From the sequence record KX009778: a stretch of DNA of 64,000 bases. The stretch is one strand, 5' to 3'. Of this stretch, positions 11,788 through 44,487 are shown piece after piece (position 1 is the stretch's first letter; the number at the start of each line of letters is the position of its first letter). The stretch is from Escherichia phage UFV-AREG1. Under the pieces are notes generated by a model, which did not search any database, was not told the origin of the DNA, and worked only from the letters and a program-made list of their open reading frames with translations. The translations under genes were made by a program, and so were the position numbers.

Positions 11788-11800
11788 AATATTTCCTCAG

Positions 11801-11808
11801 TATAAATA
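11801..11808 (+). promoter_or_regulatory. T4 late promoter TATAAATA upstream of uvsW
   Basis: Exact octamer about 30 nt upstream of uvsW ATG. Confidence 0.6.
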
Positions 11809-11837
11809 TAGATATATTTATTACATGGTATTTAGAC

Positions 11838-13349
11838 ATGACTGACATTAAAGTACATTTTTATGATTTTAGTCACGTGAGAATTGATTGTGAAGAAAGT
11901 ACATTTCATGAACTCCGTGATTTCTTTAGCTTTGAAGCTGATGGGTATCGTTTTAATCCTCGCTTCAGATATGGCAACTGGGATGGGCGAATCCGTCTTT
12001 TAGATTATAATCGACTTCTTCCATTCGGCTTAGTCGGGCAAATTAAAAAGTTCTGTGATAACTTTGGCTATAAAGCCTGGATTGACCCGCAGATTAACGA
12101 AAAAGAAGAATTATCAAGAAAAGATTTTGATGAATGGCTTTCTAAATTAGAAATCTATTCAGGAAATAAAAGAATTGAACCGCATTGGTATCAAAAAGAT
12201 GCAGTGTTCGAAGGATTAGTTAATCGTCGTAGAATTCTTAATCTTCCAACATCCGCAGGTAAATCCTTAATTCAAGCTTTGCTTGCACGTTATTATTTGG
12301 AAAATTATGAAGGTAAAATTCTTATCATTGTTCCAACAACTGCTTTGACAACTCAGATGGCTGATGACTTTGTTGACTATCGTTTATTCAGTCATGCAAT
12401 GATAAAGAAAATCGGTGGTGGAGCATCAAAAGATGATAAATATAAAAATGATGCACCAGTCGTTGTTGGTACATGGCAAACTGTAGTAAAACAACCAAAA
12501 GAATGGTTTTCCCAATTTGGTATGATGATGAATGATGAATGCCATCTTGCTACAGGAAAAAGTATTTCATCTATCATATCAGGTTTAAATAACTGCATGT
12601 TCAAATTTGGTCTATCGGGTTCATTACGTGATGGCAAAGCTAATATCATGCAGTATGTTGGAATGTTTGGTGAAATATTTAAGCCAGTAACGACTTCTAA
12701 ATTAATGGAAGATGGACAAGTAACTGAGTTAAAAATTAATAGTATTTTTCTTCGTTATCCTGATGAGTTCACTACTAAATTAAAGGGAAAAACTTACCAA
12801 GAAGAAATAAAAATTATTACTGGGCTCAGTAAAAGAAATAAATGGATCGCTAAATTAGCTATTAAACTTGCGCAAAAAGATGAAAACGCTTTTGTCATGT
12901 TTAAGCATGTATCACATGGTAAAGCTATTTTCGATTTAATTAAAAATGAATACGATAAAGTTTATTACGTATCAGGGGAAGTTGATACCGAAACCCGTAA
13001 TGTAATGAAAACATTAGCTGAAAACGGTAAAGGAATAATTATAGTAGCTAGTTATGGTGTATTTTCTACTGGTATTTCAGTTAAAAATCTGCATCACGTT
13101 GTTTTAGCGCACGGTGTTAAATCTAAAATTATTGTATTGCAAACAATAGGTCGTGTATTACGTAAGCATGGTTCTAAGACAATAGCAACAGTCTGGGACC
13201 TCATAGATGACGCGGGCGTGGTTTCTAAATCAAAAACATCTTCTAAAAAATACTCGCATTTAAACTATCTTTTAAAACATGGACTTGATCGTATTCAGCG
13301 TTATGCTGATGAAAAGTTTAATTATGTGATGAAAGAGGTTAAACTTTGA
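11838..13349 (+). CDS. uvsW: UvsW DNA/RNA helicase (SF2, DECH box)
   Basis: 503 aa; Walker A PTSAGKS and DECH motif in translation. Confidence 0.93.
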   Translation: MTDIKVHFYDFSHVRIDCEESTFHELRDFFSFEADGYRFNPRFRYGNWDGRIRLLDYNRLLPFGLVGQIKKFCDNFGYKAWIDPQINEKEELSRKDFDEWLSKLEIYSGNKRIEPHWYQKDAVFEGLVNRRRILNLPTSAGKSLIQALLARYYLENYEGKILIIVPTTALTTQMADDFVDYRLFSHAMIKKIGGGASKDDKYKNDAPVVVGTWQTVVKQPKEWFSQFGMMMNDECHLATGKSISSIISGLNNCMFKFGLSGSLRDGKANIMQYVGMFGEIFKPVTTSKLMEDGQVTELKINSIFLRYPDEFTTKLKGKTYQEEIKIITGLSKRNKWIAKLAIKLAQKDENAFVMFKHVSHGKAIFDLIKNEYDKVYYVSGEVDTETRNVMKTLAENGKGIIIVASYGVFSTGISVKNLHHVVLAHGVKSKIIVLQTIGRVLRKHGSKTIATVWDLIDDAGVVSKSKTSSKKYSHLNYLLKHGLDRIQRYADEKFNYVMKEVKL

Positions 13350-14038
13350 ATTATAAATTAATATATGATAATTTAATTAATAGAGCCCAGAATCGGGCTC
13401 GCCTTAATGGATACACTGAAACTCATCATATAATTCCTAGATGTATGGGTGGTACAGATGATAGGTGTAATTTAGTAGAACTAACAGCTGAAGAACATTT
13501 TATAGCCCATAAACTTTTAGCTAAAATTCATCCAAATCATTACGGTATAATTAAAGCCGTTATATGTATGGGAATGAACTCAAAGACTCATGAAAGACAC
13601 GTTAATAAATCTTACGCATGGGAACGTCGTAAAATGGCAGAACTTCAATCCGGTGAAGGTAATCCATTTTACGGAAAACACCATACGGAAGAACATAAAC
13701 AATATATGTCAAAACTCATGAAAAGTCGTCCAATTACATGGGGAAATAAAATTAGTAAAACTAAAAGAATGAACCCAACAAAATGGACCGAAGAAGCTAA
13801 AAGATTACATTCAATCAATCAATCGGGTAAAAATAATGGCATGTATGGAAGGAAACATTCCGCTAAATCTATTCAGAAAATTAAAGATAACATGCCAGAT
13901 AATTCAGGAGCTAATAACCCAGCTGCTAAACCTATAGAAGTAAATGGTGTTAAATATAAATGTATGAAAGACGCTTCTAAAGCTGCTGGATTATCAATGT
14001 ACAAACTAAGAATACTCAGAAAAACAGTTAATTTATAA
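13346..14038 (+). CDS. Free-standing HNH homing endonuclease (Mob-like)
   Basis: 230 aa; HNH motif ETHHIIPRCMGG…NLVELTAEEH; apparent TTG start overlapping uvsW stop (TTTGA); inserted between uvsW and uvsW.1. Confidence 0.8.
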   Translation: MNYKLIYDNLINRAQNRARLNGYTETHHIIPRCMGGTDDRCNLVELTAEEHFIAHKLLAKIHPNHYGIIKAVICMGMNSKTHERHVNKSYAWERRKMAELQSGEGNPFYGKHHTEEHKQYMSKLMKSRPITWGNKISKTKRMNPTKWTEEAKRLHSINQSGKNNGMYGRKHSAKSIQKIKDNMPDNSGANNPAAKPIEVNGVKYKCMKDASKAAGLSMYKLRILRKTVNL

Positions 14039-14050
14039 GGGCTTCGGCCC
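14039..14050 (+). terminator. Hairpin gggc-ttcg-gccc after HNH gene
   Basis: GC stem with UUCG loop then TTT. Confidence 0.45.
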
Positions 14051-14063
14051 TTTGGAGAAAAAG

Positions 14064-14294
14064 ATGTTACTAGAATTTAAACAATTTCTTTATGAAGCTT
14101 CTATTGATGAATTTATGGGTAAAATTGCCTCTTGCCAAACGATAGAAGGTTTAGAAGAACTTGAAGCTTATTATAAGAAAAGAGTTAAAGAAACTGAATT
14201 AAAAGATACTGATGACATCTCAGTCAGAGATGCTTTGGCAGGAAAAAGAGCTGAATTAGAAGATTCAGACGATGAAGTAGAAGAAAGCTTTTAA
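14064..14294 (+). CDS. uvsW.1: UvsW.1 small acidic protein
   Basis: 76 aa from ATG at 14064 (GGAG RBS); ORF track start at 14052 is a TTG. Confidence 0.8.
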   Translation: MLLEFKQFLYEASIDEFMGKIASCQTIEGLEELEAYYKKRVKETELKDTDDISVRDALAGKRAELEDSDDEVEESF

Positions 14295-14349
14295 ATTAAA
14301 AAAGGCCCAACCAAAAAGGAAGGGCCAAAACTATAGACTAAAGGTCACA

Positions 14350-14517
14350 CTATAGCAAAAGTTGTGTTTCATTTAATTGTTCTTCAGAACTTTCTGAAAC
14401 TGGTAGTTCTTTAATGTAATTATAGCAAGGCCCAGGATGTACAGGACCTTTGTCTGTTTCAACAACCAATGCAGAATCGATTGGAGTTTTACAGACAACA
14501 CAAATCTTATCTGACAT
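14350..14517 (-). CDS. Small Cys-containing protein (uvsY.-2 position), 55 aa
   Basis: ORF MSDKICVVCKTPIDS…PGPCYNY with GAGGAGA RBS 5 nt upstream; below ORF-track size cutoff. Confidence 0.5.
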   Translation of the reverse strand: MSDKICVVCKTPIDSALVVETDKGPVHPGPCYNYIKELPVSESSEEQLNETQLLL

Positions 14518-14545
14518 GATTGTCTCCTCTAAATTATATATCTAT

Positions 14546-41095: not shown

Positions 41096-42085
41096 TCATA
41101 ATTTACAGGATGAACAATCTTCAGCTTTTGGAGTTTCTATTTCATAATCATCAGTACCAGAACCATCGCGGGTATTATGATAATAGAAATTTTTTCCACC
41201 AAAATACCAAAAATACAAAAGGTCATCAATCATTATTGACATTGGAACCTTTCCTTTTGGAAAAATCTGCGGGTCATAGTATGTATTCGCCGAAGCTGAT
41301 TGACATACCCATTTCAGCATAATAGCTACCTGCGTGAGATAAGGTTTATTACCTTTCTTAGCTAATTTCCATGTATAATCATAGAGGTCTATGTTATGCT
41401 CAATATTGGGCACGACTTGATTAAAGGAGCCCTCTTTTGATTCTTTAACAGAGACTGGTCCACGTGGAGGCTCGATACCGTTTGTACTGTTAGAAACTTG
41501 GGAAGATGACTCACATGGCATAAGTGCTGATAATGTGCTATTACGGATGCCAAAGAGCTTAAGGTCTTCCCGCAGCGACGACCAGTCACAAACGTATTTT
41601 GGAGCTGCGATTTGGTCAATCTTTTTATTGTACCAGTCGATAGGTAATTCGCCTCGAGACCAACGAGTGTCTGAATAATATTCGCAAGGTCCTTTTTCTT
41701 TGGCGAGCTTAATGGATGCTTTAATGAGTCCATACTGTAATCTCTCAAATAGTTCATGTGTTAAATCGTTAGCATCTTCATAAGAAGCAAAGTTACTTGC
41801 CAGCCAAGCTGCATAGTTGGTAACACCTACACCGAGGTTACGACGCTTTTTAGCTTTTTCTGCTTCAGGAACTGGATATCCTTGGTAATCCAACAGATTA
41901 TCAAGAGCACGAACTTGAACTTCTGCCAATTCATTAATTTTATCTTGGTCTTGCCAGTCAAAATTATCCAGTACGAATGCAGAGAGAGTACAAAGGCCCA
42001 CTTCACCTTTGTTTTCAATAACTTGTATTGTTGTATACTCATCATCTTCGTAAAATTCATCTACAAATTCATAATCAATATTCAT
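41096..42085 (-). CDS. nrdA: Ribonucleotide reductase large subunit NrdA, C-terminal fragment
   Basis: 329 aa; own ATG embedded in the last codons of the HNH gene; 29 aa N-terminal extension then the GLCTLSAF… region and the NrdA C-terminus (…CSSCKL). Confidence 0.8.
   Translation of the reverse strand: MNIDYEFVDEFYEDDEYTTIQVIENKGEVGLCTLSAFVLDNFDWQDQDKINELAEVQVRALDNLLDYQGYPVPEAEKAKKRRNLGVGVTNYAAWLASNFASYEDANDLTHELFERLQYGLIKASIKLAKEKGPCEYYSDTRWSRGELPIDWYNKKIDQIAAPKYVCDWSSLREDLKLFGIRNSTLSALMPCESSSQVSNSTNGIEPPRGPVSVKESKEGSFNQVVPNIEHNIDLYDYTWKLAKKGNKPYLTQVAIMLKWVCQSASANTYYDPQIFPKGKVPMSIMIDDLLYFWYFGGKNFYYHNTRDGSGTDDYEIETPKAEDCSSCKL
41880..41992 (-). repeat. Direct repeat B, copy 2 (113 bp, nrdA coding)
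   Basis: Identical to 43007..43119. Confidence 0.9.
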
Positions 42086-42918
42086 TTAATTCTTCTACCT
42101 TTTTTCGAGATATTCCTAGAGCTTTAGATGCTCGATGTATTGATTGATATTCTATACCGTTTATTTTTACAGCAATTAAGTTATGGGGTTTTAATCCCTT
42201 TGGATGAGGTTTACTGACGTATTCTTGATTATCGTTTTCAGAGATGTTATCAAGCTTTCGACACTTAAAGCCTTTATGTTGAGACCTTTTGCCTTTGCAT
42301 ACGGCCGACATTGCCGAAGCATTGAGTGAATGTAGTTCGCAAAATTCTCTTAGGCCTTTATGGATTTCTTCATGACCGTCCGGGAAAGTAAATACCCAAG
42401 TTGTTTGAAGTTTTTCTCTATGCTCGTCAGTTACCGGAATACCTTTGTTCCAAGCTGGTTTGCCTTTATTATTTTCAGATACAGAAATAGCCAATTTTCT
42501 TCTAAGCCACCCATGGCGTTTATTGGTGTTCTTTCGTTCAATATTATCTTCAGAATAAACACACATCATATTAGCGGCAAATACCAATTTATGATTATCT
42601 GGATATATCTTTACTAATAATTGATGAGCTATGTAATGCTCTTCGGGTGTCAAATCTACCAGGTTTTCCTTTGTATCAGAACCACCAATACACAGAGGTA
42701 TAATATGGTGTGATTCGGTATAGCAATCTAATTTTCTGTTCTTAGCTTTAGAAATAAGGTTATTGTAAATTTTAGAATAATCCATAACTTTTCCTCTTGT
42801 TATGGATTATTTATTAACGGACTGTGTACTTTATTTGCTTTGAATTATACCGCCAGGATTAGCTTCATAAAACTTAGCTACATCCGACTTCTTAATTTTG
42901 ATTAAACGGGTTTGTTGG
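41993..42918 (-). mobile_element. HNH homing endonuclease cassette inserted in nrdA, including diverged nrdA-like flanks
   Basis: Unique segment bounded by repeat copies A2 and B2; holds the HNH ORF, its RBS and diverged flanking nrdA-like codons. Confidence 0.75.
42075..42785 (-). CDS. Free-standing HNH homing endonuclease (Mob-like), paralog of the uvsW-adjacent HNH
   Basis: 236 aa; HNH motif ESHHIIPLCIGG…NLVDLTPEEHYIAH; RBS agagga upstream; C-terminal DNA-binding-like region. Confidence 0.85.
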   Translation of the reverse strand: MDYSKIYNNLISKAKNRKLDCYTESHHIIPLCIGGSDTKENLVDLTPEEHYIAHQLLVKIYPDNHKLVFAANMMCVYSEDNIERKNTNKRHGWLRRKLAISVSENNKGKPAWNKGIPVTDEHREKLQTTWVFTFPDGHEEIHKGLREFCELHSLNASAMSAVCKGKRSQHKGFKCRKLDNISENDNQEYVSKPHPKGLKPHNLIAVKINGIEYQSIHRASKALGISRKKVEELNEY

Positions 42919-43005
42919 CTATTCACATCATTTGTTGGAATAGCAATTTCACAGCACAAGTTACTCTGACGAATAGGTGCCTTTTCACGAATAAACGGAG
43001 TATAG
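42919..43005 (-). repeat. Direct repeat A, copy 2 (87 bp, nrdA active-site region coding)
   Basis: Identical to 43142..43228; abuts repeat B copy 1 with 1 nt between. Confidence 0.9.
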
Positions 43006-44487
43006 ACCTTGGTAATCCAACAGATTATCAAGAGCACGAACTTGAACTTCTGCCAATTCATTAATTTTATCTTGGTCTTGCCAGTCAAAATTATCCAGTA
43101 CGAATGCAGAGAGAGTACACAATCCAATTTCAGCATCAGGACTATTCACATCATTTGTTGGAATAGCAATTTCACAGCACAAGTTACTCTGACGAATAGG
43201 TGCCTTTTCACGAATAAACGGAGTATAGTTATTCGTATTATCAATGAACTGCACATAAATCCTTGCTGTTCCTGAGCGTTCAGTCATGAGCAATTCAAAT
43301 AGTTCACGGGCTTTAATACGCTTTTTACGAATATTAGGGTCTTTTTCTGCTGCTTCGTATAATTCACGGAAACGGTCTTGGTCTTTAAAATAAGAATAAT
43401 AAAGCTCGCCACCCATTTCATGTGGACTGAACAAAGTAATATAATCGTTCTTTCCGAATCGTTCCATCATCAAATCATTCAGTTGAACACCATAATCCAT
43501 ATGACGAATGCGGTTTTCTTCTACGCCTTTGTTATTTTTCAAAACGAGAAGATTTTCAACTTCCAAATGCCAAATAGGATAATAAGCAGTAGCAGCGCCG
43601 CCACGAATTCCACCCTGTGAACATGATTTAACTGCAGTCTGAAAATGTTTCCAAAAAGGAATAACACCAGTATGACGTACTTCACCCATGCCAATTTTAG
43701 AACCTTCAGCACGAATCATACCAACATTAATACCAATTCCAGCGCGTTTAGAGATATATTCAACAATTGAAGCGGAAGCCTTATTGATAGACTTCAATGA
43801 ATCTCCTGCCTCAATAACGACGCATGAACTAAACTGCCGAGTTGGAGTACGACAGCCAGCCATAATAGGAGTTGGTAATGAAATCTGTCGAGTAGATACC
43901 GCTTCATAAAAACGAATAACGTGTTTTAATCTATCAACAGGTTCATCTTGATGCAATGCCATTCCAATAGTCATAAATGCAAACTGTGGAGTTTCATAAA
44001 TTTGACCAGTGGTTTTATCTTTAACGAGATATTTTTCTTTTAATTGCATCGCCCCGGAATAAGTAAATTCCATATCCCGCTCGTGCTTAATTTTTGATTC
44101 TAAAAATGTAATTTCTTCTGCTGAATATTTTGACAGCAGTTCAGGGTCATATTTACCTTCATTTACACAGTAAGAAATATGGTCAATAAATGAACGTGGT
44201 TCATATTGTCCGTAAACATGCTTACGAAGAGCAAACATTAAACAGCGTGCAGCTACATATTGATAATCAGGTTCTTCAACCGAAATAGAATTCGCAGCGG
44301 CCTTAATGACAATAGTCTGAATATCATCAGTGGTCATTCCATCACGGAGATATGATTTAATATTTTCATATAATTCATAAGGATCTACAGATGTTCCTTC
44401 AGCTGCCCAAGATAAAACTTTAATAATTTTTTGTGGGTCAAAGCTCTGAGAAACACCACTACTTTTGATAACATTAATTAATTGCAT
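42985..44487 (-). CDS. nrdA: Ribonucleotide reductase large subunit NrdA, N-terminal fragment
   Basis: 500 aa; contains active-site SNLCCEI and continues through repeat B copy 1, then frameshifts into repeat A copy 2 and stops (…DYQGLYSVYS*). Confidence 0.8.
   Translation of the reverse strand: MQLINVIKSSGVSQSFDPQKIIKVLSWAAEGTSVDPYELYENIKSYLRDGMTTDDIQTIVIKAAANSISVEEPDYQYVAARCLMFALRKHVYGQYEPRSFIDHISYCVNEGKYDPELLSKYSAEEITFLESKIKHERDMEFTYSGAMQLKEKYLVKDKTTGQIYETPQFAFMTIGMALHQDEPVDRLKHVIRFYEAVSTRQISLPTPIMAGCRTPTRQFSSCVVIEAGDSLKSINKASASIVEYISKRAGIGINVGMIRAEGSKIGMGEVRHTGVIPFWKHFQTAVKSCSQGGIRGGAATAYYPIWHLEVENLLVLKNNKGVEENRIRHMDYGVQLNDLMMERFGKNDYITLFSPHEMGGELYYSYFKDQDRFRELYEAAEKDPNIRKKRIKARELFELLMTERSGTARIYVQFIDNTNNYTPFIREKAPIRQSNLCCEIAIPTNDVNSPDAEIGLCTLSAFVLDNFDWQDQDKINELAEVQVRALDNLLDYQGLYSVYS
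43007..43119 (-). repeat. Direct repeat B, copy 1 (113 bp)
   Basis: Identical to 41880..41992. Confidence 0.9.
43142..43228 (-). repeat. Direct repeat A, copy 1 (87 bp)
   Basis: Identical to 42919..43005. Confidence 0.9.

Follow-up and report, generated by a model that had tools for sequence, protein, structure and literature searches.

A putative MobE-family HNH homing endonuclease gene at the uvsW/uvsW.1 junction of Escherichia phage UFV-AREG1 and its linked uvsW tail

We analysed a 64,000-nucleotide stretch of DNA from Escherichia phage UFV-AREG1 (sequence record KX009778; hereafter the window, with positions counted from its first letter), in which an open reading frame (ORF) for a predicted HNH endonuclease of 230 aa (13346-14038, + strand) follows the helicase gene uvsW. 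Sequence comparison supports the view that this ORF is a free-standing homing endonuclease gene of the MobE family in a slot unoccupied in T4, a gene for which a public label exists and whose function is uncharacterised. uvsW itself (11838-13349, +), recognised by Pfam UvsW_N, ResIII, DEAD and Helicase_C, encodes 503 aa, hosts the element at its 3' end, and is ~96% identical to uvsW of T4 and RB14 apart from its first ~150 nt and its last 139 nt. On the other side lies uvsW.1 (14064-14294, +), which encodes 76 aa from an ATG that the RB14 and ACG-C40 records also use, matches Pfam UvsW-1 (PF11637, E = 7e-30), and has a Shine-Dalgarno sequence of its own, GGAG, at 14054-14057.

The HNH ORF begins within the end of uvsW. 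Its TTG (13346-13348) lies over the uvsW TGA (13347-13349) in a TTTGA stop/start overlap (13346-13349, +; start region aaaGAGGttaaacTTTGAatt, also given as aaaGAGGttaaacTTTGAattataaa), and a Shine-Dalgarno-like GAGG, read from the sequence, stands 7 nt before it within the last uvsW codons (13335-13338, +). A first-pass annotation of this DNA had described the 230-aa frame, the overlap and the GAGG in these terms, and both the ORF list and the sequence agree with it. Its choice of the TTG as the start is borne out by the 11 Tequatrovirus copies compared (10 intact and a frameshifted one in phage BF15), all of which have the same TTG, with the N-terminus MNYxKIY beginning there, and an unchanged GAGG before it.

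Orthologues with 54-73% protein identity fill the same uvsW/uvsW.1 slot in at least eight further lineages, which include four named genera. The named occupants are Gaprivervirus DK-13, Bragavirus PM2, Gualtarvirus Rgz1 and Klebsiella phage Roth17, apparently a Jiaodavirus like its cassette-free counterpart KP182; the same uvsW-HNH-uvsW.1 arrangement occurs on four metagenomic contigs (a scan of IMG/VR with UvsW.1 gave nine loci only). In all nine lineages the HNH start overlaps the uvsW stop, as NTGA or TAATG, and in the eight further ones MNYxKIY starts at the codon equivalent to the TTG. The GAGG is found in PM2 and at locus L031, and Roth17 and Rgz1 are without it. Comparison of the predicted start codons (ATG in four lineages, TTG in three and GTG in two, hence five of nine non-ATG) shows that weak starts recur in the uvsW-slot clade. 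The N-termini of T4 MobE and of a paralogue embedded in nrdA of the window begin at the equivalent codon as well, an ATG in both. As judged by comparison, the stop/start overlap in nine lineages and the conserved MNYxKIY settle the TTG as the start of the window's ORF.

The earliest in-frame ATG is codon 34 (the M of ..PRCMGG..), which falls within the HNH motif and past the catalytic His-His. It is highly improbable that the start has been mis-called and that the product, made from this ATG, is a 197-aa DNA-binding protein devoid of nuclease activity. The record of phage ESh30, an automated annotation, does use the codon-34 ATG, and no ATG lies upstream of it. However, every homologue shares the conserved stretch of codons 1-33 (NYxKIYDxLI and ETHH, with M1 and Y3 invariant), which can be aligned with the N-termini of T4 MobE and the nrdA paralogue, both initiated at ATG. 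Four lineages have an ATG where the window has its TTG, and initiation at M34 would delete the catalytic His-His.

The best PHROG for the predicted protein is phrog_655, 'homing endonuclease' (E = 1e-59), and its closest T4 gene is mobE, with 51% identity over the N-terminal 105 aa (BLASTP E = 1e-31); tblastn likewise gives mobE as the best T4 locus. Relatives such as P0087 have one MobE of 213 aa that corresponds to T4 mobE (141 aa) and nrdB.1 combined. In a search of a large protein database, the uvsW-slot clade forms a separate block (E ≤ 1e-68), and the next match is at 1e-36. An alignment of 30 homologues and a structure model delimit an HNH ββα-metal nuclease core from Y23 to H55 (YTETHHIIPRCMGGTDDRCNLVELTAEEHFIAH; 13412-13510, +), in which Y23, E25, H28, P31, C33, G36, N42, L46, E50, H51, A54 and H55 are invariant and H27 nearly so. 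The AlphaFold model (mean pLDDT 87) predicts strands at residues 25-28 and 43-46 and a helix at 48-61 (pLDDT >94), which as modelled is the ββα-metal topology. The description of the product as a Mob-like HNH protein in the first-pass annotation is upheld by the phrog_655 and MobE matches, the conserved HNH residues and this strand-strand-helix model.

Beyond the core, two stretches match Pfam PF07460 (NUMOD3), the best of them at residues 94-122 (13625-13711, +; E = 7e-14). A second NUMOD3-like helix and a C-terminal helix-turn-helix (residues ~157-228; 13814-14029, +) resemble the DNA-binding domain of I-TevI, as judged by phmmer against PDB 1I3J (E = 0.006, residues 157-216), by Foldseek, whose top match is 1i3j_A (prob 1.00, TM(target) 0.51), and by the model, which has a small sheet (strands 197-199 and 202-204) and a helix-turn-helix (helices 207-214 and 218-228) at its C-terminus. 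PDB matches to HNH domains (group II intron maturase, Cas8-HNH and Gme HNH) are weak, at E 0.15-0.83 for the listed HNH matches in Foldseek and 0.34-0.8 in phmmer, and no Pfam HNH model reached E 0.01 against the protein.

In phages G8 and G28 the gene is labelled as a group I intron-encoded endonuclease. An Rfam scan of 12900-14500 gave no match at E ≤ 1 to an RNA family of any kind; no group I intron is detectable there, and the GenBank label 'group I intron endonuclease' is therefore unsupported. Further, the match to NCBIfam TIGR01453, at 30.4 bits, falls short of the cut-off of 56, and the host frames end and start as separate genes. The gene is free-standing: it is flanked by uvsW and uvsW.1, lies in no detectable intron, and has an empty site that is defined in seven relatives.

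We aligned 11 sequences with the gene (the window and 10 other loci) with seven Tequatrovirus loci that lack it. In those seven the empty site reads ..TACGTAATG followed directly by AAAACAGTTAATTTATAAGGGCTTCGGCCC.., and relative to it (..TACGTAATG to the left, AAAACAGTTAATTTATAAGGGC.. to the right) the multiple alignment gives a net insertion of 689 nt in the window (13332-14020, +). The next 18 nt (14021-14038, +; AAAACAGTTAATTTATAA, encoding KTVNL*) match exactly the final 18 nt of uvsW in every Tequatrovirus without the gene, and this ancestral uvsW remnant now forms the last five codons and the stop of the HNH ORF. The endonuclease frame has therefore been joined in frame to the end of the host gene, and uvsW in carriers ends with another tail, ..MKEVKL*. 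The first-pass annotation had the ORF wedged between uvsW and uvsW.1; it named the right flanking genes, but the insertion point precedes the ancestral end of uvsW by 18 nt. Directly past the former uvsW stop, all Tequatroviruses have a GGGC-UUCG-GCCC tetraloop hairpin (14039-14050, +) and then UUU. This hairpin is native to the uvsW/uvsW.1 spacer, where it occupies the same place after the uvsW stop in phages without the gene; in cassette-bearing phages it now lies 3' of the HNH ORF and no longer 3' of uvsW.

The difference between carriers and non-carriers also extends upstream of the ORF. From 13211 onwards uvsW diverges sharply, and the resulting variant tail (13211-13349, +), which encodes ..AGVVSKSKTSSKKYSHLNYLLKHGLDRIQRYADEKFNYVMKEVKL*, is the left part of the mobile cassette. 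Over these 139 nt, ~35 substitutions separate every cassette-bearing from every cassette-free phage; identity to congeners lacking the gene is 72% versus 96% upstream, and synonymous divergence (dS) is ~1.8 versus 0.17. All 11 cassette-bearing loci (window included) have the variant tail and none of the seven Tequatrovirus loci lacking the gene does; linkage of tail and HNH gene is perfect across 17 inspected loci. Polymorphisms upstream and downstream of tail and insert show no association with the cassette. Database-wide, the tail occurs at ≥95% identity in 47 records, with none at 90-95%, a count equal to that of the ORF alone at ≥95% identity (47 records). Tail and ORF thus constitute a moving or co-inherited unit of ~0.81 kb (13211-14020), the borders of which are sharp and identical in the 11 compared copies.

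A 1.8-kb query across the uvsW/uvsW.1 junction matched 751 phage records, nearly all Tequatrovirus-like, and 47 of them (~6%) have the insert. The ORF is not a universal feature of related phages with conserved flanks, and T4 lacks it, as the first-pass annotation had stated; in T4 and other relatives uvsW.1 follows uvsW directly, at a distance of 25 nt. Carriers include T6, ACG-C40 (ORF 99.9% identical), PST, PYPS2T, HY03 and pSe_SNUABM_01 and span at least six ICTV species (T6, c40, pst, hy03, pyps2t and snuabm); the empty site is found in T4, RB14, ECML-134, slur11 and PinkRuby. The GenBank records of T6, ACG-C40, PST and other carriers already label the gene 'homing endonuclease', 'MobE' or 'mobD', most with the same TTG-overlap start. 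Sporadic presence at one homologous site together with a co-inherited flanking tail polymorphism is a homing-type pattern. The T4 reference (NC_000866) fuses uvsW and uvsW.1 into a 587-aa ORF, reading TTTA-ATAAGC where TTTATAAGGGC is expected, a known sequencing error.

A second homing endonuclease gene, segE, lies 1.5 kb upstream of the cassette in some carriers and is missing from others, which indicates that the cassette has recombined into different backgrounds. segE is present upstream of uvsW in T4, T6, ACG-C40, PST and RB14 and absent from ZN18, G8, BF15, PinkRuby and the window (11788-11990). The first ~150 nt of uvsW, which are the SegE target region (PMC2988022), differ by ~30 substitutions between the groups with and without segE, whether or not the HNH cassette is present at the 3' end of uvsW.

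Ten of the 11 examined Tequatrovirus copies are intact at 230 aa. Pairwise ratios of nonsynonymous to synonymous divergence (dN/dS) among 10 copies are 0.04-0.12, with dS up to 0.17, and the protein is therefore maintained by purifying selection. These data bear on whether the gene is a decaying relic, that is, an inactive endonuclease kept by its linkage to uvsW, with the TTG as the trace of a lost proper start. A non-ATG start, the lack of a recognisable promoter of its own and the one frameshifted copy in BF15 would fit such a relic, and among T4's own elements I-TevIII and several of the mob genes are on record as defective or untested (PMC2988022). We consider this very unlikely, given the 10 of 11 copies that are intact at low dN/dS, the conservation of all catalytic residues, and the presence of TTG or GTG at the same uvsW-stop overlap in five of nine independent lineages, which resembles tuned low expression more than decay.

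Beyond Tequatrovirus, the cassette-free congeners VR25, KP182 and CHI14 have uvsW and uvsW.1 in direct overlap, as TAATG or ATGA. The HNH ORFs of DK-13 and PM2 close with a perfect copy of the host uvsW end (17 and 15 nt, respectively), by which the overlap with uvsW.1 is restored. The window clade, DK-13/P0007, P0006 and PM2 have such a uvsW-end remnant, and Roth17, Rgz1 and L030-L033 do not; it is recurrent and not universal, five other lineages being without it. In PM2 (L013, 1-2003), uvsW is annotated in two pieces around an 875-nt 'hypothetical protein' ORF (locus positions 245-1120), which, besides the junction HNH gene, may be a second mobile insertion in uvsW.

A linked tail is likewise seen in other genera. 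We compared three pairs of cassette-bearing and cassette-free phages, one pair per genus (window/RB14, DK-13/VR25 and Roth17/KP182). In all three the uvsW body is 92-96% identical versus 72-80% for the last 150 nt. Tail dS is 1.8 for window/RB14 and saturated beyond estimate for DK-13/VR25 and Roth17/KP182, versus 0.17-0.44 upstream, and the amino acids of the tail are largely kept, genus-specific ones included. A common origin of the cassette-linked tails was considered and rejected: their mutual identity is 61-77%, no closer than to anything else. Nor did the phage collection contain a donor of the Tequatrovirus tail, the best match outside the cassette-bearing records being 72%. The most economical reading is that the interval from the cut site to the endonuclease gene is always co-converted and may in this way have become a separate allelic lineage; such co-conversion has been described for other free-standing T4 endonucleases (review PMC2988022; MobE). 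Co-conversion of the tail would place the cut site within the tail, immediately upstream of it, or astride the junction that the insert disrupts.

The same observations bear on the possibility that the gene is a resident that is no longer mobile, having entered long ago and since been transmitted vertically and by recombination, and that it is kept for a benefit to the phage, such as excluding competitors' markers or stimulating recombination and repair near uvsW, uvsY and oriF, with no active homing. This would accord with Tequatrovirus copies that have diverged at synonymous sites as far (dS up to 0.17) as the uvsW sequence beside them, with a slot filled in at least five genera at 54-73% protein identity, with strong purifying selection, and with linked tails that keep genus-specific amino acids at saturated synonymous sites, as if they were old allelic lineages and not recent invasions. 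Patchy presence (47/751, in several species) with identical sharp borders is, however, the signature of homing; MobE, the nearest relative that has been characterised, is mobile and active; and purifying selection is equally expected of an actively homing endonuclease. On balance we judge the resident gene to be unlikely.

How the gene might be expressed was considered from its surroundings. No late-promoter TATAAATA occurs on the + strand in 11808-14543, no MotA-box-like motif was seen for the HNH gene, and sigma-70-like matches are at chance frequency; a promoter of its own was rejected on these grounds. The stop/start overlap and the lack of promoter signals mirror mobE: T4 mobE has no promoter and an internal terminator, and its product nicks T2 nrdB (PMC2790892), and translational coupling has been proposed for the mobE/nrdA overlap (PMC2988022).

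Within the coding region, 37 nt into the ORF, the window has a GC-rich stem-loop, GAGCCC-AGAAUC-GGGCUC (13383-13400, +; -10.6 kcal/mol). A GC-rich hairpin of 6-9 bp begins at nt 32-38 of the ORF in all nine uvsW-slot lineages and in T4 mobE, with stem sequences that differ, loops that are mostly GNRA-like, and encoded amino acids that are not conserved; hairpins of such strength occur in 1.5% of 42-nt spans in the window. The hairpins were scored one by one and a column-wise count of covariation was abandoned, as MAFFT loses register between lineages (start at nt 32-34 or 37-38). A position-conserved hairpin with covarying stems was noted in the MobE-type genes of the window, L012, L013, L014, L028 and L030-L033 (nt 32-58) and L029 (T4 mobE). 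The equivalent hairpin in T4 mobE is a mapped weak intrinsic terminator (PMC2790892), and a terminator role was previously shown only for that hairpin; possible roles of the window hairpin are attenuation, pausing or processing. A different structure, in which a hairpin hides the Shine-Dalgarno sequence and the TTG, was rejected: the window alone gives z = -3.2, and the consensus of a five-genus alignment reaches only -1.4 kcal/mol, with no compensatory pairs.

Taken together, we think it probable that the ORF represents a MobE-family homing endonuclease gene of the free-standing HNH type, carried in a ~0.81-kb cassette (13211-14020) with low, coupled expression, and that it homes in the following way. 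The gene, apparently having no promoter of its own, would be co-transcribed with uvsW, and ribosomes that end at the uvsW TGA would reinitiate at the overlapping weak TTG, assisted by the GAGG within uvsW, giving low translation. The GC-rich hairpin 37 nt into the ORF would lower expression further, as is the case with the homologous hairpin of T4 mobE. In a mixed infection, the NUMOD3 helices and the C-terminal helix-turn-helix would bind a long site, and the cassette-free allele would be nicked or cut at the uvsW/uvsW.1 junction or else within or close to the terminal ~140-170 nt of uvsW. Repair by recombination with the cassette-bearing genome would then copy the whole cassette, and the diverged tail and disrupted junction would shield the carrier from self-cleavage.

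Several observations weigh against this interpretation. The dS among HNH copies (up to 0.17) is as large as in flanking uvsW; the element is therefore not a very recent arrival, and this level is as compatible with long residence plus recombination as with active homing. The BF15 copy (L020, 2047-2739) is frameshifted after codon ~158 and annotated as a truncated 195-aa product, and is an example of decay of the element. Structural matches to solved HNH and I-TevI domains are weak (Foldseek E 0.08-0.8), and the window hairpin is not followed by the U-tract of a canonical intrinsic terminator, and its role may differ from that in mobE. The sole candidate for an immunity polymorphism, a Lys codon in ..DEKF.. 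that reads AAA wherever the tail is cassette-free and AAG, CGG, CAA or CAG in the five cassette-bearing lineages compared first, was dropped, since the cassette-bearing L030-L032 also have AAA. In the literature we found no paper describing the uvsW-slot HNH gene, nor cleavage, homing or expression experiments on it.

A more far-reaching idea, which we put forward tentatively and regard as possible though doubtful, is that presence and absence of the cassette form an ancient polymorphism older than the T4-like genera. The HNH gene would in that case be locked to a synonymously recoded version of the last ~140-170 nt of uvsW, serving as its immunity allele, and the shared expression throttle (stop/start overlap, frequent non-AUG start and covarying hairpin) would be kept by selection. 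If true, the locus would offer a natural system in which to follow the co-evolution of a selfish nuclease and a gene of an essential pathway over deep time.

The nrdA-embedded HNH gene of the window (42075-42785, - strand) encodes 236 aa from an ATG start, is flanked by NrdA pieces, and also belongs to phrog_655 (E = 3e-60). The first-pass annotation had proposed that it and the uvsW-slot gene are paralogues, a relation that holds at 35% identity over the full length (BLASTP E = 1e-37), and the interruption of nrdA is confirmed. The interrupted nrdA spans 41096-44487 (-), with an N-terminal piece that corresponds to residues 1-494 of T4 NrdA and a C-terminal piece that corresponds to residues 452-754, and ~43 codons are present twice, as a direct repeat of 126 nt (41880-42005 and 43007-43132, 96% identical). 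Another repeat, of 96 nt (42919-43014 and 43142-43237), has a spacing of 223 nt; the window is 223 nt longer at nrdA than its closest relatives REP2, HY01 and PEC04, which coincides with the spacing of the 96-nt repeat. From the sequence, the repeats look like a partial duplication of codons ~418-494 beside the endonuclease gene.

Free-standing homing endonucleases are a main driver of T-even mosaicism and marker exclusion, and few have been characterised (SegA-G, MobE and I-Tev). The present analysis adds a further, uncharacterised homing slot where the recombination helicase gene uvsW ends, occupied in T6 and in dozens of therapeutic-candidate phages. What is new here is the exact cassette and its empty site, the in-frame uvsW remnant, the linked recoded tail in three genera, and the conserved overlap, weak start and hairpin. 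From these comparative data follow hypotheses on the location of the cut, on low expression through TTG/GTG reinitiation and the hairpin, and on the recoded duplicate uvsW tail. The element is of an expected, well-understood class, and the understanding of such systems is unchanged.

Among known systems, T4 MobE, encoded between nrdA and nrdB (Wilson & Edgell 2009, PMC2790892), is the nearest T4 relative (51% over the N-terminal 105 aa, both in phrog_655). Both genes start in overlap with the stop of the upstream host gene, have no recognisable promoter of their own, are sporadic among T-even phages, and have a GC-rich hairpin ~30-37 nt into the coding region. They differ in the slot, uvsW/uvsW.1 for the window gene versus nrdA/nrdB for mobE, in diverged central and C-terminal regions, in the start codon (TTG versus AUG), and in the hairpin, which in the window has a 6-bp stem, a 6-nt loop and no U-tract versus a 9-bp stem, a 4-nt loop and poly(U) in the T4 mobE terminator. 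Unlike T4 MobE, the window gene, whose product is a predicted endonuclease, ends in a host-gene remnant and brings a substitute host-gene tail.

The nrdA-embedded HNH of the window and mobE of Aeromonas phage Aeh1, which splits nrdA (PMC2988022), both belong to the protein family of the uvsW-slot HNH. Like the uvsW-slot gene, the nrdA-embedded gene is inserted in a conserved DNA-metabolism gene and has duplicated host-gene sequence at its flanks. However, the nrdA copy cuts its host gene into two large pieces in the catalytic barrel, whereas the uvsW copy only removes and replaces the last five codons, and the nrdA paralogue has an ATG start and no internal hairpin, in contrast to the TTG and the hairpin of the uvsW-slot gene. 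T4 SegE, whose target lies in uvsW, is likewise a free-standing homing endonuclease gene attached to uvsW that assorts independently among relatives; unlike the uvsW-slot gene it is of the GIY-YIG family, lies at the opposite, upstream end of uvsW, and is absent from the window. Finally, HNH endonucleases of the I-HmuI and I-TevIII type and the I-TevI DNA-binding domain share the same modular build of an N-terminal HNH, NUMOD3 helices and a C-terminal helix-turn-helix; unlike those types, the uvsW-slot HNH does not lie in an intron, uvsW and uvsW.1 being separate genes in all relatives.

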